DNA from: Candidatus Micrarchaeota archaeon
GTDB taxonomy: Archaea > B1Sed10-29
Assembly (NCBI GenBank): GCA_964388265.1
Contig: CAYLXZ010000028.1
Location: 1 to 8,998 of the forward strand
Length of the DNA stretch: 8,998 nucleotides
Direction of reading: 5' to 3'
Part shown: one piece after another, positions 1 to 8,998 of the stretch
How positions within the stretch are numbered: position 1 is the first letter of the stretch
Layout: every line of letters begins with the position of its first letter
Notes under the pieces: model-generated
Seen by the model: the letters and a program-made list of their open reading frames with translations, nothing else
What the model was told of the DNA's origin: nothing
Database searches by the model: none
Translations under genes and position numbers: made by a program

Positions 1-48
1 AGAAACTGGAGATAGCCTGAGACACGGGTTCAAATCCCGTTCGGAGCA
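1..48 (+). tRNA. tRNA, most likely tRNA-Glu, 3' portion only (truncated by window start); 1-13 looks like the 3' end of an intron (or split-tRNA leader) at position 37/38
   Basis: Anticodon-stem 3' strand GCCTG (15-19), short variable region AGAC (20-23), T arm ACGGG-TTCAAAT-CCCGT (24-40), acceptor 3' strand TCGGAGC plus discriminator A48. This matches the archaeal tRNA-Glu pattern (GCTCCG...CGGAGCA). No Glu anticodon lies where expected upstream of GCCTG, so the anticodon is not visible. Confidence 0.8.
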
Positions 49-70
49 TCTTAAGATCTTTATAGGATAA

Positions 71-154
71 GCGGGGATGCCTGAGCGGTCAAAAGGGCTA
101 GGCTTAGGACCTAGTGGCTTAGTGCCTTCAAGGGTTCAAATCCCTTTCCCCGCA
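71..154 (+). tRNA. tRNA-Leu (anticodon TAG)
   Basis: Full cloverleaf: acceptor GCGGGGA/TCCCCGC with A discriminator; anticodon arm CTAGG-CTTAGGA-CCTAG (TAG at 105-107); long variable arm; T arm AAGGG-TTCAAAT-CCCTT. CCA is not encoded. Confidence 0.97.
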
Positions 155-156
155 TC

Positions 157-191
157 CACTTCTCCCACACTTTCTTCAAAATTAGTTTTTT
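157..191 (+). terminator. Possible pyrimidine/T-rich archaeal terminator after the tRNA pair
   Basis: CACTTCTCCCACACTTTCTTC followed by a T run directly 3' of tRNA-Leu. Assigned by position and composition only. Confidence 0.3.
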
Positions 192-197
192 ATTAAG
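186..197 (+). promoter_or_regulatory. Putative TATA box for the surface protein gene
   Basis: TTTTTTATTAAG about 30 nt upstream of the ATG at 227. Confidence 0.4.
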
Positions 198-226
198 CGA
201 GTTCCTTCTCTTACCAGGGTTTAATC

Positions 227-1723
227 ATGAAGATAAAGATATTGAAGGTATTAACTCTGATAATGGTTCTTCTCCCTATTGCATTCTCTTTGAATATAGT
301 AGAACCTGATACAGGAGCTTACCTATCTGGAGAAACGCAGATAGAGGTTTTGGTGGAAGATGAAAACGTTTCAAGAGTTGAAATCTATTGGGGAGCTACC
401 TCTCGAGGATGGAACAAGATAGATACCATTGAAGAGGGAGGTCAAGGAACATACACGACTAACTTTGATACCACTGATATGCCTGATTCATCTAACCTCC
501 TTATCAGAGCTAATGCGATTGAATGCTACTCTTCATGGGTGGAGGACAAGGGTGAGATATGCTGGTCATCCAAGACCGATATACATAAGAATATAACTAT
601 TGACAACACACCACCTAGAGTAAAGGAAGCTCCATGGATCATATTTAACAACCTAGGGGGTAACTTAACAGCTAAGATGCAGGTTAAGATAACAGACAAG
701 CTTACAGGGATAAAAGAAGTAAATAAACCAGTAATAGATAGGAAAAAAGATGAATACATCCTAGATATTGAAGAAAACCTAGTTAACTCCACTATTATCT
801 TTGAGGACGGAGCGGGAAACCAAGAAGAACACAAACTAGGATACATCTTATCAAATAATAACTTAACTTCTCTGGAGAATAACACTGTCTCAGAGCAAGA
901 GTACAGGAAGAAAGATTCCCTTGAGAACACAGGGGAAAACAGCTTCTACTACTACATCACTCATTCCTCTCTAGAAGGAAGTGAAGAGGTCGATGGATTG
1001 GAGTTCACAGGAGGACTTCACCCAGGAGAATCCACTTCACTTGAAACAACATGGAAAGGAGACTGGATAGAACTAGACCAAAGCAAATGGACACAGAACC
1101 AGGAGAAGAAATCAACTCCTGATGAAGTTCACTTCAAAGCTAACTCAACCATAAAAGCTAAAGAAATCCTACCTGAATCCACTGAAGTCACGTATGAACC
1201 TAGACAACAGGACCTAGAGAAATGTTCCTATATAGAGACCGAGAAAAGGGATTTAGGTGAATTGGATCCTGGTGAAGGAAGAAACTTATCCTTGAAGTCA
1301 AAGGTTGACTGCATAGGGAATTTGAATCTATCAGAATGGAGTTCTCTCAATGATTCAGGTAGCTTGACTGCTGGCTACGAATATATTGCAAATAACTTTT
1401 CGAGTACCTTGAATGTGACTTACCAGGTGCCTGAAGATCAGTTACCTGAGAACTACAGCTGTGAAGAGGGCTGCTCGAAGAAAAAGAAAACCGTTCCCGG
1501 TAACTCAACTGATGTTTACTTCCAGGTAGAGGAAGATCAGAGTTCCAGTAAAATCAAAGATAGTGAAGATCAGGAAACAGGGGTTACAGGGTTAATGTCA
1601 GGTTCTTTAGGCGAATCTGTTTTATTTGAAGCAGGATTAGGTCTCTTTGTTTTAAGTATAATCTTGGGAGTTACTTATTTCTTGAAGAAGAGAAGGATTA
1701 ATAATGAAACGGAAGAGATCTAG
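227..1723 (+). CDS. Secreted, C-terminally membrane-anchored surface glycoprotein with probable Ig-like/beta-sandwich domains (function unknown)
   Basis: N-terminal signal peptide (MKIKILKVLTLIMVLLPIAFS). Ig-like repeat hallmarks: 'P..G..LSG', 'ITIDNTPP', 'D.AGN', and two 'L.PGE' motifs. 14 N-X-S/T sequons in the ectodomain and six Cys. C-terminal hydrophobic helix followed by KKRR. Confidence 0.8.
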   Translation: MKIKILKVLTLIMVLLPIAFSLNIVEPDTGAYLSGETQIEVLVEDENVSRVEIYWGATSRGWNKIDTIEEGGQGTYTTNFDTTDMPDSSNLLIRANAIECYSSWVEDKGEICWSSKTDIHKNITIDNTPPRVKEAPWIIFNNLGGNLTAKMQVKITDKLTGIKEVNKPVIDRKKDEYILDIEENLVNSTIIFEDGAGNQEEHKLGYILSNNNLTSLENNTVSEQEYRKKDSLENTGENSFYYYITHSSLEGSEEVDGLEFTGGLHPGESTSLETTWKGDWIELDQSKWTQNQEKKSTPDEVHFKANSTIKAKEILPESTEVTYEPRQQDLEKCSYIETEKRDLGELDPGEGRNLSLKSKVDCIGNLNLSEWSSLNDSGSLTAGYEYIANNFSSTLNVTYQVPEDQLPENYSCEEGCSKKKKTVPGNSTDVYFQVEEDQSSSKIKDSEDQETGVTGLMSGSLGESVLFEAGLGLFVLSIILGVTYFLKKRRINNETEEI

Positions 1724-2119
1724 TTAATCTACCTTGAATTTATGCCCGTAGGCTATTACTCCTTCTTCACTGCTGTTTACCTTTCTGAAAACTTTCTTTA
1801 CTTTTTTCCCTATCTCTATCTCACTTTCATCGGAGTCCACTATCTGTGCGAACACGGTGACTTCGTTTTCCAGTTCTATGAGCCCTATATAGTAGGGTGT
1901 TTCGTCTTCGAAGTCCTTGTGAGCTGCGTGTATCTGTGAGTAGCTCTTTATCTTTCCCGTCCTAGGCATCTCTTTGTCCTCTAGTTTTCCTTTTCTCCTG
2001 CAGTTCGGGCAGATCTTTCTCTTTGGATAGAAGTCTTCTCCGCAGTTCTTACAGTGATTTCCTTCTAGCCTGTATCTTTCTGGGTATTTTCTCCAGTTCA
2101 ATGGTATTGCTTCTTTCAT
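1724..2119 (-). CDS. DUF35 family Zn-ribbon + OB-fold protein (scaffold of the archaeal thiolase/HMG-CoA synthase complex)
   Basis: CKNC and CPNC zinc ribbon in 'RYRLEGNHCKNCG..FYP.RKICPNC', OB-fold C-terminus ending 'YGHKF'. Abuts the thiolase gene, with SD AGGTGAT upstream. Confidence 0.93.
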   Translation of the reverse strand: MKEAIPLNWRKYPERYRLEGNHCKNCGEDFYPKRKICPNCRRKGKLEDKEMPRTGKIKSYSQIHAAHKDFEDETPYYIGLIELENEVTVFAQIVDSDESEIEIGKKVKKVFRKVNSSEEGVIAYGHKFKVD

Positions 2120-3289
2120 TTAATCACCTTTTTTGAGTAGATGTACTACTGCGCTAGCTCCGCTTCCTCCTACGTTGTGTGTTAAACCTATTTCAGGGTC
2201 CTTCACCTGTCTTTCTCCGGCTTTGCCTGTGAGTTGCTTGTAGGCCTCTACTGCTTGTGCTACTCCTGTTGCTCCTACAGGGTGTCCTTTTGCTTTTAAT
2301 CCTCCAGAGGGATTTATTGGTATCTTTCCATCTCTCTTGGTTTCTCCTTTTTCCACTGCTTCTGCTGCTTTTCCTTTCTTGTAGAATCCTAGGTCTTCCA
2401 TTGCCATTATTTCTGCTATTGTGAAGCAGTCGTGTACTTCAGCAAAGTCAACATCGCTTGGCTTTAAATCTGTTTCTTTGTATGCTTTTTCACTTGCTCT
2501 CTCCGTTGCTTTGAGCTTTGTTATTGATTCTCGGTTTGCTAGGTCCAGTGTGTCGCTGGCTTGGCTGGATGCCGTTATCTCTATGTATTCTCTTCCTTCT
2601 TCCTCAGCTTTTTCTTTAGTTGTAAGTGTCACTGCGGCTGCTCCGTCCGTTAATGGAGAGCAGTCGTATAATTTTAGAGGAGTAGCTACTTTTGGTGACT
2701 TCATGACTGAATCTATGGAGATTTCTCTTTGGAACTGCGCGTACGGGTTCTTTGCTCCGTTCTCATGGTTCTTCACGGCTACCTGTGCCAGTTGTTTCTC
2801 TGTGGTTCCATATTTCTCCATGTGTTTCCTTGCCATTAATGCGTATATTCCTGCGAATGTTCCTCCGTTGAATATCTCGGTTTCTTGGTCTCCTGCTCCT
2901 CCGAGTGCGAAGTTCGCTCTTCCTGTGGAGACGTCTATCATTTTTTCTCCGCCTCCTACCACGACTAGGTCGTGTTCTCCTGAGGCTACGGATAGGTAAC
3001 CTGTTCTTAGTGCAGTTCCTCCTGAGGCGCAGGCTGACTCTACTCGAGTCGATGGTATTGGGTTCAGTCCTACTTGGTCGGCTACGAGTGCTCCTATGTG
3101 CTCTTGTCCTATTAGTCTTCCTGATGCCATGCACCCTGTGTATAGGGCGTCTATCTCGTCTCCTTTTATCTCGCTTTCTTTAACTGCTTTTACTCCTGCT
3201 TCGGCTATGAGGTCTTTGAAGCTTTCTTCCCATCTTTCTCCGAACTCTGTTAGTCCTGTTCCGATTATCACGACTTTTCTATCGTTCAT
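2120..3289 (-). CDS. Acetyl-CoA acetyltransferase (acetoacetyl-CoA thiolase, archaeal/SCP2-like type)
   Basis: Catalytic Cys in 'VESACASG'; motifs 'DCSPLTDGAAA', 'EVHDCF', 'GHPVGATG', 'HNVGG'. ATGA overlap with HMG-CoA synthase and SD GGAGG. Confidence 0.96.
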   Translation of the reverse strand: MNDRKVVIIGTGLTEFGERWEESFKDLIAEAGVKAVKESEIKGDEIDALYTGCMASGRLIGQEHIGALVADQVGLNPIPSTRVESACASGGTALRTGYLSVASGEHDLVVVGGGEKMIDVSTGRANFALGGAGDQETEIFNGGTFAGIYALMARKHMEKYGTTEKQLAQVAVKNHENGAKNPYAQFQREISIDSVMKSPKVATPLKLYDCSPLTDGAAAVTLTTKEKAEEEGREYIEITASSQASDTLDLANRESITKLKATERASEKAYKETDLKPSDVDFAEVHDCFTIAEIMAMEDLGFYKKGKAAEAVEKGETKRDGKIPINPSGGLKAKGHPVGATGVAQAVEAYKQLTGKAGERQVKDPEIGLTHNVGGSGASAVVHLLKKGD

Positions 3290-4329
3290 TCGTGAACCTC
3301 CTTTAGTTTGTTCATGTATCTGGCGTAGGTTCCGTAGTCCACGTACTTTTTTTCGTCTATCTTGTCTTGTAGTGTTTCCTCAGGTTTTGAGTCTGTTATC
3401 TGCGGTTTTGTTTCTATTAGGAAGGAGTCACTTCCTGCTCCGCTTCCGTAGGATGTTAGCATTATTCTTTGGTTTGGTTTTGCTTGATCCAGGACGTTAG
3501 CTAGGCCTATGAAGGTTGCGGCGGAGTACGTGTTACCTATCTGTGGTGTGATTAATCCTGGTTTTATTTTCTCTAGTGGTATGTCTAGTTTTTTACCTGC
3601 TTTCAATGGGAATTTTCCGTTTGGTTGGTGGAATACGAAGTAGTCGAAGTCCTCTTTGTTTAGTCTTGTTTCTTTGAGCAGTTTCTTCGTGGAGTTCAGA
3701 ACGTGTTTGAAGTACGCTGGTTCTCCTGTGAATCTTCCTCCGTGTCTTGGGAACTCTTGAGCTTCTCTTCTCCAGAAGTCAGGTGTGTCCGTGGTATATG
3801 ATACGGTTTCTTTTATCTCAGCTATCTTTCCTTCTTTATCTAGCACTACGGTTCCGGCTCCACATCCTGCGCTGTATTCCAGGGCGTTATTTGGGCTGGA
3901 TTGGGAAGTGTCGGTTCCAATTGCCATTCCTTTCTCTATTTGTCCGCTGTTTATCATTCCCATTAGTGCTTGGATTCCTGCTGTTCCGGCTTTGCATGCG
4001 AACTCGAGGTCAGCTCCGGTTAGGTCTGGAGTTGCTCCGATTGCTTCTGCTACTATCCCTGCTGTTGGTTTCACTGCGTAGGGTGGGCTTTCGCTTCCCA
4101 CATAGATTGCCTGTATTTCCTCTGGGTTTATTGAGTTTGTTTTTATGGCTTCTCTTGCTGCTTCTACTGCTAGTGTCGCGCTGTCTTCATCGTGGTGTCT
4201 TACGGTTTTTTCCCGGATATTAAGACTTTTCTTCATTGTTTCTGGGTTTTCTCCCCATTGTCTGGCTATTTCTTCTGCTTTTATCCTTCTCAGTGGTATT
4301 GAGGTACCGTATGAGTTTATTCCTACCAT
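3286..4329 (-). CDS. Hydroxymethylglutaryl-CoA synthase, archaeal type
   Basis: Motifs 'GSESPPYAVKP', catalytic 'EFACKAGT', 'DTPDFWRR', 'RFTGEPAYFKH', 'FHQPNGKFP', 'GNTYS', 'SYGSGAGSD'. Clustered with thiolase and DUF35. Confidence 0.97.
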   Translation of the reverse strand: MVGINSYGTSIPLRRIKAEEIARQWGENPETMKKSLNIREKTVRHHDEDSATLAVEAAREAIKTNSINPEEIQAIYVGSESPPYAVKPTAGIVAEAIGATPDLTGADLEFACKAGTAGIQALMGMINSGQIEKGMAIGTDTSQSSPNNALEYSAGCGAGTVVLDKEGKIAEIKETVSYTTDTPDFWRREAQEFPRHGGRFTGEPAYFKHVLNSTKKLLKETRLNKEDFDYFVFHQPNGKFPLKAGKKLDIPLEKIKPGLITPQIGNTYSAATFIGLANVLDQAKPNQRIMLTSYGSGAGSDSFLIETKPQITDSKPEETLQDKIDEKKYVDYGTYARYMNKLKEVHE

Positions 4330-4375
4330 TTTTACATTCTTCCTCTGTTTGGCTTTGTTATCTTACTTATTGGGT

Positions 4376-4390
4376 GTTTAAAAGGTTTTC
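4376..4390 (-). promoter_or_regulatory. BRE-TATA promoter of the mevalonate operon
   Basis: Minus strand reads GAAAACC-TTTTAAAC (purine-rich BRE, then TATA-like box) about 47 nt upstream of the ATG at 4329. SD-like AGAGGAAG at 4346-4339. Confidence 0.6.
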
Positions 4391-4510
4391 GTTAGACGAA
4401 TAACGTAATTACGGTAATGAACGTAAGTTTTTATCTGTTCTTTTCCTTAAAAACCCAGGTTAGATAATCAAAGTATAAACAGTTTCAAACTTAGTTTTTC
4501 TTTGTAAATC

Positions 4511-4518
4511 TATATAAA
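4511..4518 (+). promoter_or_regulatory. Putative TATA box of the nrdD operon
   Basis: TATATAAA about 100 nt upstream of nrdD, implying a leader of roughly 70 nt. SD GGAGG at 4601-4605. Confidence 0.5.
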
Positions 4519-4611
4519 TTACTCTTTCCTTAATCCAACACATCAAACTGCATTGTAAATTGAACATAGAAACATGCAAAAATTAAGAAAACTAAAAACT
4601 GGAGGGAAAAA

Positions 4612-7600
4612 ATGAGTAAAATACAGAGAATAGAAAAAAGAGACGGTGAAGTAGTACCGTTCGACAAATCAAAGATCACAAACGCTATATACGCAGCGGC
4701 GAAATCAGTGGGAGAAGAAAGCAAGAAAGCATGCAAAGACCTAGCTGACGTAGTTACAAAGGAACTAGAAAGAAGATACGAAGACAAAAAAAGAGAACTA
4801 CCCGACGTAGAGGAAATACAGAACCTAGTAGAAGAAGTACTGATGGAAAAAGCACATCCAAAAACAGCTAAAGCTTACATCCGATACAGACAACAACACG
4901 AAAACATAAGACAGATAAGCAGGTTCATAGAAGACGTTACACTCGTAGAAGACTACCTTAATAGAGACGACTGGGAAGTAAAGGAAAACGCGAACATGAG
5001 CTACTCTTTACAAGGGCTAAACAACTACTTAAGCGAAAAAGTAATCAGGAAATACTGGCTAAAGAAAATCTATCCTCAACAAGTACAAAATGCACACGAA
5101 GACGGAAAGTTCCATATCCACGACCTAGGAGTACTAGGACCATACTGCGTGGGATGGGACCTAAAAGACTTCCTGAAATCCGGGTTCGAAGGAGTAAGAG
5201 GAAAAATAGAGACAAAAGCCCCAAAACACCTTGACGCAGCACTAGGGCAACTAGTAAACCTACTCTACACACTACAAGGAGAAGCAGCAGGAGCACAAGC
5301 AGTATCAAACCTAGATACCATGATGGCTCCATTCATAGCGTACGATGACCTAAGCAGAAGAGAAGTAGAACAAGCATTAGAATCATGGGTATTCAACATG
5401 AATGTGCCAACAAGAGTAGGGTTCCAAACACCATTCACCAACGTGACAATGGATTTAACAGTTCCAAAGAGCCTAGAAGACGAGCCAGTGATCATAGGAG
5501 GAGAAGAACAAGATAAAACCTACGGGGACTTCCAAGAAGAGATGGACATGTTCAACGAAGTGTTCGCAGAGATAATGATGAAAGGAGACGCAAAAGGAAG
5601 ACCATTCACCTTCCCAATACCAACCTATAACATAACCAATGACTTCGACTGGGACAAAGAAACACTAGATCCAGTATGGGAGATGACAGCAAAGTACGGA
5701 ATACCATACTTCGCGAACTTCATCAACTCAGACATGGAAGCGGACGACGCAAGAAGCATGTGTCCCATAGATGGGGAAGAGAAAGTACTCATAAAATCCT
5801 CCAGAGGAAGAGAACTAGAATACAGTAAAATTAGAAATATCTATGAAGGAAATTCCAAACAAGAAGAATACGAAATCTTCAGCGATGGAAAATTCGTTAA
5901 AGGAGAATTCAACAAATTCAAGAACCAGGAAATGGTTAAAGTAACTTTAGAGAACAACCATGAGCTTAAAATGACGAAAGAACACTTAAACTTCATATTA
6001 AGAGATAGAAACAGTGAAATGGAAGAACTAAAAGGGAAAGAACTGAAAGAAGGAATGTATCTCCCCTATTCCCAGAAAAAATATGAAGGAAGAGAAAAAA
6101 GCAATAAAGAAATGGGTTACTTCATAGGAGCCTTTGCAGGTGATGGATCATTTGATGGAGAAACTACAGTAATCTTCTCTTTAAATAAAAACCAGGAAGA
6201 AGAAGTGGCTGAAGAACTAGCTGACATTGCAAGGAGATATTTCGGTGCCCACACAACCTTAACTCCCCATGAAGAAACCGAGTTGCTCACCCTCAAAGTT
6301 CATTCCCGAGCAGCAGTAGGATTATGCAAAGACTACGTCTCAGGAAAAGAAAGAGAAAAACACTATCGAGCACGGCTCTTTAACACCGGGATTGAATTTA
6401 GAGAAGGGGTAATCGAAGGACACTACGCAACAGATGGAGGAAACAGAAACCGTATATATACTTCTTCTGAAAAGATGGTAGAATCACTTAACATGCTAGC
6501 AGCTACTTTAGGAACAACTACAAGTGTTTACCAAGACGATAGAGAAGGGAGATTAGGTGAAGAACCTAACTACTCCGTGCTCATCTACCAGCTAAACAGA
6601 GATAAATATGGAGAACTATGGTTCAAAAAACACAACAAACTATGGGTGAAAATAAAGTCCATTGAAGACATTCCAAACAACACAGCCTACTGCTTCGAAG
6701 TAAAAAACGATGAACCCATCTTCACAGTAGGTAGTACAGGTATACTCACTCACAACTGCAGGCTCCGACTAGACAAGAGAGAACTAAAGAAAAGAGGAGG
6801 AGGACTATTCGGAGCAGACCCCAAGACAGGGAGCATCGGAGTAGTAACAATCAACATGCCCAGGATAGGGTACGAAGCGGACAATGAAGAAGAGTTCATG
6901 GAGATGCTCGAAGACAGAATGGATCTAGCAAAGAAAAGCCTGAAGATCAAGAGGGAAATCCTAGAAAGACTGACAGAGAAAGGACTGTTCCCATACTCCA
7001 AGTACTACCTCAGAGACATAAAAGAAGGCTACGGAGAGTACTGGAAGAACCACTTCAGCACCATAGGACTGAACGGAATGAACGACGCGCTTCTAAACTT
7101 CATGGACACTAATATAGGGACAGAAGAAGGAAGGAAGTTCGCGGAGAAAGTGCTAGTGAAGATGAGAGAAAAGCTAGCGGACTACCAAGAAGAAACAGGA
7201 GACATATTCAACCTAGAAGCAACACCAGCAGAAGGAACAAGCTACAGGCTAGCAAGAATAGACCAACAAAGATACCCAGACCTAAGAATACACAACCAGG
7301 AAAAATACGGAAGCAAGACACCTTACTACACAAACAGCACACAGCTACCAGTAGGATACACAAACGATCTATTCGAAGCGCTTGACAACCAAGACCCACT
7401 ACAAACCAAATACACTGGAGGAACCGTGTTCCACGGCTTCCTAGGAGAAAAGATGCCGGATAAAGAAGCGACAAAGAGCCTAGTGAAGAAGATAGCTAAC
7501 AACTACGAGCTACCGTACTACACTCTATCCCCAACATTCAGCGTGTGCCCAGAACACGGGTACATACCTGGAGAACACGAATACTGCCCAACATGCGATA

Positions 7601-7653
7601 AAGAACTAATGAATAAAGTTGAAAGCCAAAATGGAGGTGGCGTAGATGGATAA
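4612..7653 (+). CDS. nrdD: Anaerobic (class III) ribonucleoside-triphosphate reductase large subunit with N-terminal ATP-cone; contains an intein; lacks the C-terminal glycyl-radical loop
   Basis: ATP-cone 'IEKRDGEVVPFDKSKITNAI'; motifs 'HIHDL', 'PYCVGW', 'FTFPIPTYN', finger loop RSMC..CRL, 'TGSIGVVTINMPR', 'NLEATPAEG', 'YTGGTVFH'; Zn site CPEH...CPTC. No RxxGY motif before the stop. Confidence 0.97.
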   Translation: MSKIQRIEKRDGEVVPFDKSKITNAIYAAAKSVGEESKKACKDLADVVTKELERRYEDKKRELPDVEEIQNLVEEVLMEKAHPKTAKAYIRYRQQHENIRQISRFIEDVTLVEDYLNRDDWEVKENANMSYSLQGLNNYLSEKVIRKYWLKKIYPQQVQNAHEDGKFHIHDLGVLGPYCVGWDLKDFLKSGFEGVRGKIETKAPKHLDAALGQLVNLLYTLQGEAAGAQAVSNLDTMMAPFIAYDDLSRREVEQALESWVFNMNVPTRVGFQTPFTNVTMDLTVPKSLEDEPVIIGGEEQDKTYGDFQEEMDMFNEVFAEIMMKGDAKGRPFTFPIPTYNITNDFDWDKETLDPVWEMTAKYGIPYFANFINSDMEADDARSMCPIDGEEKVLIKSSRGRELEYSKIRNIYEGNSKQEEYEIFSDGKFVKGEFNKFKNQEMVKVTLENNHELKMTKEHLNFILRDRNSEMEELKGKELKEGMYLPYSQKKYEGREKSNKEMGYFIGAFAGDGSFDGETTVIFSLNKNQEEEVAEELADIARRYFGAHTTLTPHEETELLTLKVHSRAAVGLCKDYVSGKEREKHYRARLFNTGIEFREGVIEGHYATDGGNRNRIYTSSEKMVESLNMLAATLGTTTSVYQDDREGRLGEEPNYSVLIYQLNRDKYGELWFKKHNKLWVKIKSIEDIPNNTAYCFEVKNDEPIFTVGSTGILTHNCRLRLDKRELKKRGGGLFGADPKTGSIGVVTINMPRIGYEADNEEEFMEMLEDRMDLAKKSLKIKREILERLTEKGLFPYSKYYLRDIKEGYGEYWKNHFSTIGLNGMNDALLNFMDTNIGTEEGRKFAEKVLVKMREKLADYQEETGDIFNLEATPAEGTSYRLARIDQQRYPDLRIHNQEKYGSKTPYYTNSTQLPVGYTNDLFEALDNQDPLQTKYTGGTVFHGFLGEKMPDKEATKSLVKKIANNYELPYYTLSPTFSVCPEHGYIPGEHEYCPTCDKELMNKVESQNGGGVDG
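5764..6756 (+). mobile_element. Intein with LAGLIDADG homing endonuclease in NrdD (P385-N715, 331 aa; alternatively starts at C384, 5761)
   Basis: Block A-like PIDGEEKVLI; block B TKEH (5974-5985); endonuclease blocks FIGAFAGDGS (6121-6150) and IEGHYATDGG; block F AYCFEV; block G GILTHN followed by Cys+1. Removal restores DARSMC-CRLRLD. Confidence 0.95.
7633..7639 (+). promoter_or_regulatory. Shine-Dalgarno site for the small glycyl-radical gene
   Basis: GGAGGTG ending 6 nt before the ATG at 7646, within the last codons of nrdD. Confidence 0.8.
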
Positions 7654-7798
7654 AGAAGACCTACCTGAAGAAGAAAGAACAAAATGCGAAGTTTACTCAA
7701 GGATAGTCGGGTACCTAAGACCCGTAGAACAATGGAACGAAGGAAAAACCGAGGAGTTCCACAACAGAGAAACCTTTGAAACGAGTATAAACGTATGA
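7646..7798 (+). CDS. Stand-alone NrdD glycyl-radical domain protein, 50 aa (not in the supplied ORF track)
   Basis: Hand translation: MDKEDLPEEERTKCEVYSRIVGYLRPVEQWNEGKTEEFHNRETFETSINV. It contains the NrdD C-terminal signature (CEVYSRIVGYLRP..WN.GK..EF..R), has a strong SD, overlaps nrdD by 8 nt and overlaps nrdG by ATGA. Confidence 0.93.
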   Translation: MDKEDLPEEERTKCEVYSRIVGYLRPVEQWNEGKTEEFHNRETFETSINV

Positions 7799-8481
7799 AG
7801 ATAAGAGGAATAAGAAAAACAACACTGGTGGACTACCCAGGGAAAGTAGCAACCACTATATTCACAGGTAAATGTAACTTCAGGTGTCCTTACTGTCATA
7901 ACCCTACGTTAGTGGAAGAAAAACCTGACACGGACACCATACCTATAGATAAATTCCTCAAGTTTCTAGAGGAGAGAAGAGGGAAACTCGGCGCCGTGTG
8001 CATAACAGGAGGAGAACCCACACTACAACCAGATATAAAGCAATTCATAGAAAAGATAAAAGATAAAGATTACCTAGTGAAACTGGATACCAATGGCTCG
8101 AACCCAGAGAAACTGAAAAAACTATTACCTACAGTGGACTACGTGGCGATGGATATAAAAGCACCCAAGGAAAGATACCAAGAAGTAACCAGGTCCAAGG
8201 TCGATCCGGAGAAAATACAGAGAAGCATAGACTTGATAAAGGAAAGCGATGTAGAATACGAATTTAGAACCACAGTAGCTCCAGATCTACTGGACGAAGG
8301 AGATATGGAAGAAATAGGTAAATGGCTAGATGGATCTAGAAACTACTACATCCAGCAGTTCAGTTCAAAGAACACTCTGGATCCTGATTACCGTGAGAAA
8401 ACTCCTTACCCTGAGGAAAAGCTTGAAGAGATCAAGGAATCCATCGAGAAACACTTTGGAAACTGTGAAATCAGATCCTAG
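7795..8481 (+). CDS. nrdG: Anaerobic RNR activating enzyme (radical SAM)
   Basis: Motifs 'TLVDYPGK', CNFRCPYCHN (CxxxCxxC), 'ITGGEPTL', 'KLDTNGS', 'AMDIK', 'EFRTT'. Operonic with nrdD. Confidence 0.95.
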   Translation: MKIRGIRKTTLVDYPGKVATTIFTGKCNFRCPYCHNPTLVEEKPDTDTIPIDKFLKFLEERRGKLGAVCITGGEPTLQPDIKQFIEKIKDKDYLVKLDTNGSNPEKLKKLLPTVDYVAMDIKAPKERYQEVTRSKVDPEKIQRSIDLIKESDVEYEFRTTVAPDLLDEGDMEEIGKWLDGSRNYYIQQFSSKNTLDPDYREKTPYPEEKLEEIKESIEKHFGNCEIRS

Positions 8482-8490
8482 TTCTGACAT

Positions 8491-8532
8491 AAGGGTTTTT
8501 AATTTCTCAATCCACTTAATTCACAGGGTGAT
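8491..8532 (+). promoter_or_regulatory. Putative promoter and SD of the HIT gene
   Basis: AAGGG-TTTTTAAT (8491-8503) about 33 nt before the ATG; GGTGAT SD at 8527-8532. Confidence 0.5.
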
Positions 8533-8535
8533 AGA

Positions 8536-8946
8536 ATGGAAGACTGTCTGTTCTGCCAGATAATTAAGGGAAAGAAACCAAGCCATAAGGTATACGAAGA
8601 CGAAGATGTCTACGCGTTTCTAGATATAAACCCAAAAGTCAAGGGACACACGCTTGTAGTGCCTAAGGAACACAGCGAGACGTTCTTGGATCTAGATTCA
8701 TCTCAGATAGATACATTATTCGAGTCCGTACAAAAAATAGCTAAAGGAATCACTGAAACAGTTAATGCAGAAGGATTCAACTTAATGCAGAACAATGGAA
8801 GAGCAGCAGGACAGGTTGTTGACCACGTACACGTACACATACTTCCAAGAAAACAAGACGATGGCCTGGACATGGAATGGAGTTATGAGCCTGAAGGAGA
8901 ATTCCAAGAACTTAAGAAAGAGATTAAAAACTCAATTGAATCTTAA
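8536..8946 (+). CDS. hit: HIT (histidine triad) family nucleotide hydrolase, Hint-like
   Basis: N-terminal 'DCLFCQI', 'AFLDINP..GHTLVVPKEH', 'AGQVVDHVHVHILPR' (HxHxHxx triad). Confidence 0.95.
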   Translation: MEDCLFCQIIKGKKPSHKVYEDEDVYAFLDINPKVKGHTLVVPKEHSETFLDLDSSQIDTLFESVQKIAKGITETVNAEGFNLMQNNGRAAGQVVDHVHVHILPRKQDDGLDMEWSYEPEGEFQELKKEIKNSIES

Positions 8947-8966
8947 GTTTAACTAAACACTACTCA

Positions 8967-8998
8967 GGGCCCGTAGATCAGTGGAAGATCGTTTCCTT
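8967..8998 (+). tRNA. tRNA, most likely tRNA-Ala, 5' portion (truncated by window end just before the anticodon)
   Basis: GGGCCCG acceptor 5' strand (G3), TA, D arm GATC-AGTGGAA-GATC, G, anticodon stem TTTCC then TT. Resembles archaeal tRNA-Ala 5' ends. AT-rich TATA-like TTAAGTTTAA at 8943-8952. Confidence 0.85.

Follow-up and report, generated by a model that had tools for sequence, protein, structure and literature searches.

A proline-first intein in the anaerobic ribonucleotide reductase gene of a Candidatus Micrarchaeota archaeon and its likely class 3 route through a block F cysteine

The nrdD gene of Candidatus Micrarchaeota archaeon B1Sed10-29 is interrupted by an intein that appears to begin with a proline, which raises the questions of where exactly this intein starts and how it could splice with no nucleophile at its N-terminus. 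The window analysed was a stretch of 8,998 nucleotides (positions 1 to 8,998, forward strand) and represents the whole contig CAYLXZ010000028.1 of assembly GCA_964388265.1, a 726-kb genome that is 82% complete.

The nrdD gene (4612..7653, + strand) encodes a class III (anaerobic) ribonucleotide reductase (RNR) with an ATP cone (PF03477) and an NRDD domain (PF13597) and with one intein inside. It is of the double-cysteine MCCR type, one of two class III finger-loop types (PMC9669993), and all the features of such an enzyme were found: GPYCVGW with the beta-A Cys, the SMC/CRL finger loop (the slash marks a splice junction), the Zn site CPEH...CPTC, and RIVGY on the next ORF. The latter, a separate ORF of 50 aa (7646..7798, +), covers positions 531-562 of PF13597 and represents the glycyl-radical segment of the NrdD C-terminus; across 31 loci this segment was a separate ORF in 18, fused in 7 and beyond the fetched stretch in 6. 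It is followed by a radical-SAM protein (7795..8481, +; PF04055, PF13353), likely the NrdG activase as judged from its position. The named top matches of the host protein were from Aenigmatarchaeota, Nanohaloarchaea and Woesearchaeota; with the nearest named intein homolog, given below, they make a DPANN source the most likely. The genome, 82% complete, yielded no large subunit of a class I or class II RNR. A NrdD-like paralog of 589 aa (27% identity) is encoded on contig C1 of the same genome (about 5700-7500, minus strand); neither the CRL finger-loop motif nor the glycyl-radical motif was found in it, and similar paralogs are present in many relatives.

The rest of the window contained a tRNA-Leu(TAG) at 71-154, preceded within 1-154 by the apparent 3' part of a second tRNA that is truncated at the contig end. 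The predicted product of 227-1723 is a surface protein with an Ig-like domain, and that of 8536-8946 a HIT-family protein. HMG-CoA synthase-like, thiolase and ChsH2/DUF35 genes lie side by side on the minus strand (1724-4329), a row which we take to be the usual archaeal mevalonate-entry cluster.

Translation of the ORF 4612-7653 agreed with the junctions and motifs read in the initial annotation (DARSMC-PIDGEEKVLIK, TKEHLN, AYCFEV and GILTHN-CRLRLD). The span given there, 5755..6765, does hold a NrdD intein, but the intein proper is confined to 5764..6756 (+; 331 aa, Hint and LAGLIDADG), as delimited by Pfam, a predicted model and the matches in the genomes of relatives, which stop precisely at query residue 384 and resume at 716 on uninterrupted DNA. 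The insertion is in frame and absent from orthologs, contains blocks A, B, F and G, and ends in His-Asn before Cys, as expected for a Hint-fold intein. Pfam Intein_splicing scored 42.8 bits (cut-off 35.8) and LAGLIDADG_3 28.4 (cut-off 22.5), and the predicted model (mean pLDDT 94) matched inteins composed of Hint and LAGLIDADG domains (TliVMA, 7qsu, E 7e-20). The LAGLIDADG domain (6100..6609, +, limits approximate) carries two motifs, FIGAFAGDG (6121-6147) and VIEGHYATDG (6409-6438), and was assigned from motifs and fold as a homing endonuclease with predicted cleavage activity. The frequency of T at third codon positions was 0.19 in the intein (5764-6756) versus 0.07 and 0.06 in the exteins, which is consistent with a later arrival of the intein.

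The start of the intein depends on the assignment of Cys384 (5761..5763, +) and Pro385 (5764..5766, +). It had been claimed that Cys384 must stay in the extein and that the proline occupies position 1 of block A, and an alignment with intein-free close NrdD homologs had been asked for. Among the 119 closest host proteins examined, 114 had an empty site, four a Pro1 intein and one a Cys1 intein (P0313, reading SMC/CFTG). All 114 empty sites showed two cysteines (SMCCRL in 107, SMCCHL in 7), and none of the proteins searched read SMCRL or AMCRL. In a set of 151 more distant rows the C-junction was recognisable in 129 and the N-junction too in 116, which had Pro (47) or Cys (69) in one column; an added search gave 74 new proteins, 33 of them Pro-first and 38 Cys-first, with the junction missing in 3. 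Every allele whose N-junction could be seen (116 + 71) had the extein Cys-1, and at this site only Pro or Cys was seen as first residue (187 alleles; no Ala1, Ser1 or other). The 107 Cys1 alleles (69 + 38) keep an extein Cys of their own ahead of Cys1 in the form xxC/C-[F/L]-x-G, and the proline sits in the Cys1 column. Both SCCR cysteines of the T. maritima NrdD are essential (PMC4493059), so splicing of the intein must be precise. The empty sites, the xxC/C alleles and the essential host cysteines together place Cys384 in the extein as residue -1, the first Cys of the finger loop, with Pro in place of Cys1. The register Cys384/Pro385 ... Asn715/Cys716 is thus settled in favour of both earlier claims, and the product that the host requires is SMCCRL, whose second Cys is Cys716 (residue +1; 6757..6759, +). 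Automatic rules will place the intein start at Cys384 and thereby delete a catalytic cysteine of the host RNR.

The intein region, used as query, had 558 matches, and SMC/P[L/I] was present in 119 of the best 120, the remaining one being N-truncated and starting with MCP. In addition, all four CCN codons were used for Pro1 across 21 loci, so that the proline is neither chance nor a sequencing error. At 76% identity, the nearest named homolog of the intein came from an assembly of Ca. Iainarchaeum. Named carriers were Woesearchaeota, Nanoarchaeota, Iainarchaeum, Patescibacteria, Anaerolineae and two viral contigs, a spread over DPANN, CPR and other bacteria, and viruses; on a tree of 186 diverse alleles, 80 were Pro1 and 106 Cys1. 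Comparison of the 21 loci gave pN 0.25 and pS 0.80 for the Hint domain, with pN below pS in 209/210 pairs, which indicates purifying selection; the LAGLIDADG domain gave pN 0.24 and pS 0.79.

The Pro1 prototype from mycobacteriophage Bethlehem was fetched and translated for alignment, with block labels after PMC2807308. Its Pro1, Ser62, His65, Trp67 and Cys320 aligned with Pro1, Thr71, His74, Asn76 and Cys310 of the NrdD intein. The block B core T71-K-E-H74-L-N76 (5974..5991, +) therefore has Thr at B7, His at B10 and, where class 3 has Trp, Asn at B12; Cys310, which is Cys694 of the ORF (6691..6693, +), is Cys F4 and the predicted first nucleophile, and block G ends in Thr-His-Asn (G5, G6 and G7; 6748..6756, +). 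His B10, Asn/Gln B12, Cys F4 and Thr G5 were found in 80/80 diverse Pro1 alleles, and the Thr-His-Asn end and Cys+1 were invariant across them. Cys F4 accompanied Pro1 in 119/119 best homologs, in 47/47 and 33/33 diverse alleles and at 21/21 loci. The initial annotation had read Cys F4 and Thr G5 correctly, and was also right that B12 is Asn and not Trp, but Asn in 39, Gln in 41 and Trp in none of the 80 Pro1 alleles make this a conserved substitution, not a loss.

This combination was compared with the three known intein classes. Class 1 has Cys or Ser at position 1, and residue 1 here is Pro. Class 2 (KlbA) likewise has no N-terminal nucleophile and shares Cys+1, but its Ala1, Asp F4 and Ser G6 (PMC4031507) and its KlbA host are replaced by Pro1, Cys F4, His G6 and NrdD. 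Of the WCT features of class 3, the absence of Cys/Ser/Thr from position 1, Cys F4 and Thr G5 were found; B12 is Asn instead of Trp, and residue +1, usually Ser or Thr in class 3 with Bvi IcmO as an exception (PMC2807308), is Cys in all alleles. For want of Trp B12 the intein is not class 3 in the WCT sense; it does fall within the looser definition used in a 2020 survey (no Cys at N1:1, Cys at C2:4; PMC7891396).

Like the WCT inteins (Bethlehem DnaB/TerL, M. smegmatis DnaBi1, M. chimaera DnaB1), the NrdD intein has no N-terminal nucleophile and has His B10, Cys F4, Thr G5, a His-Asn end, a relaxed B7 and a LAGLIDADG domain, and with Bethlehem it shares Pro1. It differs from them in Asn/Gln B12, Cys+1, Cys-1, a residue 1 that is always Pro, and a host that is an RNR rather than a helicase or terminase. 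Splicing of the Bethlehem prototype at 15 °C survives the changes W67N and W67Q, and C320A/S are dead; Trp is structural and B7 dispensable, and Cys F4 and His B10 are needed in class 3 (PMC2807308), for which Gly/Asp at B7 has also been reported (PMC7891396). The AceL NrdHF split intein (MCT; Hoffmann et al., PMC7891396), biochemically confirmed as class 3 without Trp, shows that Trp B12 is not obligatory. It likewise lies in a ribonucleotide reductase gene, that of a class Ib beta subunit, but is a split mini-intein with Ala1 and Ser+1; solved structures, compared up to E 1, gave no sequence match to it. Pro1 inteins and Trp-less class 3 inteins thus each have precedent.

According to Tori 2010, non-KlbA inteins without a nucleophile sit in helicase-like hosts (PMC2807308). 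Among its 1702 class 3 sequences, given as accessions only, the 2020 survey counted NCT three times and QCT never (PMC7891396); a few members of the Pro1 NrdD family may be among those counted there unnamed, and two older accessions of the family were absent from its table. PMC5050341 deals with WCT inteins of mycobacteriophages. In searches of largely open-access full texts, no paper was found to name a Pro1 or class 3-like NrdD intein. The Pro1 NrdD alleles represent a large set of Trp-less class 3 candidates.

From the Cys F4 that no Pro1 allele lacks, the poor fit to class 2, the splicing of W67N and W67Q in the prototype and the Trp-less AceL NrdHF we infer a class 3-like route: the Pro1 NrdD intein is probably intact and mobile, and is likely to splice through block F Cys694. 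The four steps outlined here are all predicted for this intein. His74, Asn76 and the tertiary Cys-Pro amide would prime the N-terminal bond, and Cys694 would attack the carbonyl of Cys384 to give a branched thioester at block F and free Pro1. The N-extein would be transferred from Cys694 to Cys716, after which Asn715 would cyclise, aided by His714, and an S-to-N shift would restore the Cys-Cys bond of the finger loop. Movement of the intein between nrdD genes of anaerobes would depend on the LAGLIDADG domain.

An alternative that we consider unlikely is a class 2-like route, in which the first attack on the Cys-Pro amide comes from Cys+1 itself and Cys F4 has no more than an assisting role or is simply inherited. 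The invariant Cys+1 would permit a direct attack. Cys F4 is common also in the Cys1 alleles of the same site (61/69 and 33/38, the others having Asp or Ser, 8/69 and 5/38), and class 1 inteins elsewhere in NrdD have it too. The initial caveat that class 1 inteins may carry Cys F4 is therefore stronger than was thought, and with Cys F4 in 94/107 Cys1 alleles that of the Pro1 alleles may be inherited. Class 2 inteins, however, depend on Thr B7, His B10 and Asp F4 (PMC4031507), and the Pro1 alleles never have Asp F4, have His at G6, and show Gly, Asp or other residues at B7 in 22/47 (Gly/Asp in 20). Thr or Ser was found at B7 in 25/47 Pro1 versus 68/69 Cys1 alleles, although on the tree this relaxation corresponds to just three changes on the Pro1 side and one on the Cys1 side.

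The extent to which the signature residues are held in place was assessed on one tree of 80 Pro1 and 106 Cys1 alleles, with a total branch length of 51.5 for Pro1 and 50.3 for Cys1. Changes away from Cys F4 numbered 0 on the Pro1 side versus 4 on the Cys1 side, those away from Asn/Gln B12 0 versus 16, and Thr G5 of the Pro1 alleles did not change. In a scan of 136 well-filled Hint columns the column most constrained in Pro1 alleles was Pro101 (6064..6066, +; p 1e-9), near-invariant there (79/80) and variable in Cys1 alleles, followed by B12 (p 2.7e-6); the extra constraint on F4 was weak in the tree-aware test (p 0.07), and other columns of the scan were equally strongly constrained on the Cys1 side.

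It is improbable that the product is SMCCRL and the thiol of Cys384 nonetheless takes part in splicing, through a thioester relay or a redox-gating disulfide with Cys694 or Cys716. The active site brings three thiols together, and Pro1 was found only behind Cys-1, with no first residue other than Pro or Cys among the 187 alleles, unlike in the WCT inteins; moreover, the class 3 DnaBi1 is redox-gated by a disulfide (PMC6195587). The host enzyme, however, itself demands Cys-1, whose invariance is therefore uninformative about participation, and on chemical grounds an attack on its own carbonyl would require a four-membered ring. We speculate that three thiols in an oxygen-sensitive enzyme would allow a gating like that of DnaBi1.

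A dead intein that inactivates nrdD is very unlikely: with a genome 82% complete another RNR could be missing from the assembly, but the frame is open, the motifs are intact, pN is below pS in nearly all pairs, the intein has hundreds of homologs, and the neighbouring nrdG and glycyl-radical ORFs are intact. Hardly credible is a class 1 intein with Cys384 as residue 1 and SMCRL as product, to which Cys-Pro-Ile lends only a superficial nucleophile at the start, against the two cysteines of every empty site, the absence of SMCRL or AMCRL from the proteins searched, the xxC/C alleles with Pro in the Cys1 column, and the two essential finger-loop cysteines.

With the block F route through Cys694 retained as the likely one, the origin of the Pro1 alleles was considered. 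The same-site Cys1 inteins resemble them in often having Asn B12 and Cys F4, and differ in Cys1, a retained Thr B7, a drifting B12 and an F4 that is sometimes Asp. One such Cys1 intein, that of the Clostridium phage c-st NrdD (deposited in GenBank), shares the insertion point (xxC/.../CRL) and has homologous Hint and endonuclease domains, with 29% identity to the Pro1 intein over 329 residues. All 48 Pro1 rows were nearer in Hint identity to a same-site Cys1 allele than to 12 WCT-type references, with means of 27% and 17%, respectively, and the result was the same under 12 versus 12 resampling. Pro1 endonucleases scored a median of 85 bits against the Cys1 alleles of the site and 31 bits against the WCT references.

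In the phylogeny that had been called for, the best careful tree (49 rows) set the WCT clade (100/96) apart from the alleles of the NrdD site (95/97), although a tree joining Pro1 to the WCT clade was unrejected (p-AU 0.09) and in a quick set of 142 rows the better score went to the joined tree (p-AU 0.63). A full-length tree of 38 rows nested a large clade with Cys1 and Cys F4 within the Pro1 alleles (93/94, 87/81; two changes in total), which suggests a reversion to Cys1; Pro1 monophyly was likewise unrejected (p-AU 0.093). On these comparisons the Pro1 family likely derives from same-site class 1 inteins rather than from the WCT clade, and an independent switch from class 1 to class 3 is favoured, not demonstrated. 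A fuller history, to which we would give slightly less than an even chance, is that splicing by a block F cysteine arose a second time: a class 1 NrdD intein would have gained Cys F4 and exchanged Cys1 for an obligate Pro with Asn/Gln-Cys-Thr, then spread in archaea, bacteria and viruses, with one large lineage returning to Cys1.

If true, this would mean that intein classes 1 and 3 are interconvertible by few substitutions, and it would contradict the published views that class 3 arose once (PMC4031507, PMC3196547) and has no direct evolutionary path from class 1, a graft of WCT onto a class 1 intein having failed (PMC7664689). The states Cys1/Asp-F4, Cys1/Cys-F4 and Pro1/Cys-F4 are all extant at one NrdD site, and since Pro1 and Cys1 alleles share site, Hint lineage and endonuclease, the origin of class 3 is directly testable with natural pairs. 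Within the WCT clade itself nests the terminase intein of Lactococcus phage AM4 (L034), which has Cys1, Cys F4 and Ile B12 and may have reverted from class 3 to class 1.

Inteins were also seen at other sites of NrdD. A second family begins with Thr (GAY/TY[YF]GKET...HN/CVGW; P0006, P0021, P0030 and P0031) and sits immediately before the other catalytic Cys, at a site that also hosts class 1 Cys1 alleles (P0061, P0096, P0115 and P0118). The site GFQ/.../TPF carries Cys1 inteins with a Gly-Asn end and Cys at or near F4 (P0007, P0009, P0015 and others) and is shared by the Ser1 alleles P0036 and P0064. In the genome of the micrarchaeon itself at least three further inteins were found on contigs C11, C14 and C15 (L055-L060), with Asp F4 in the C-junctions seen.
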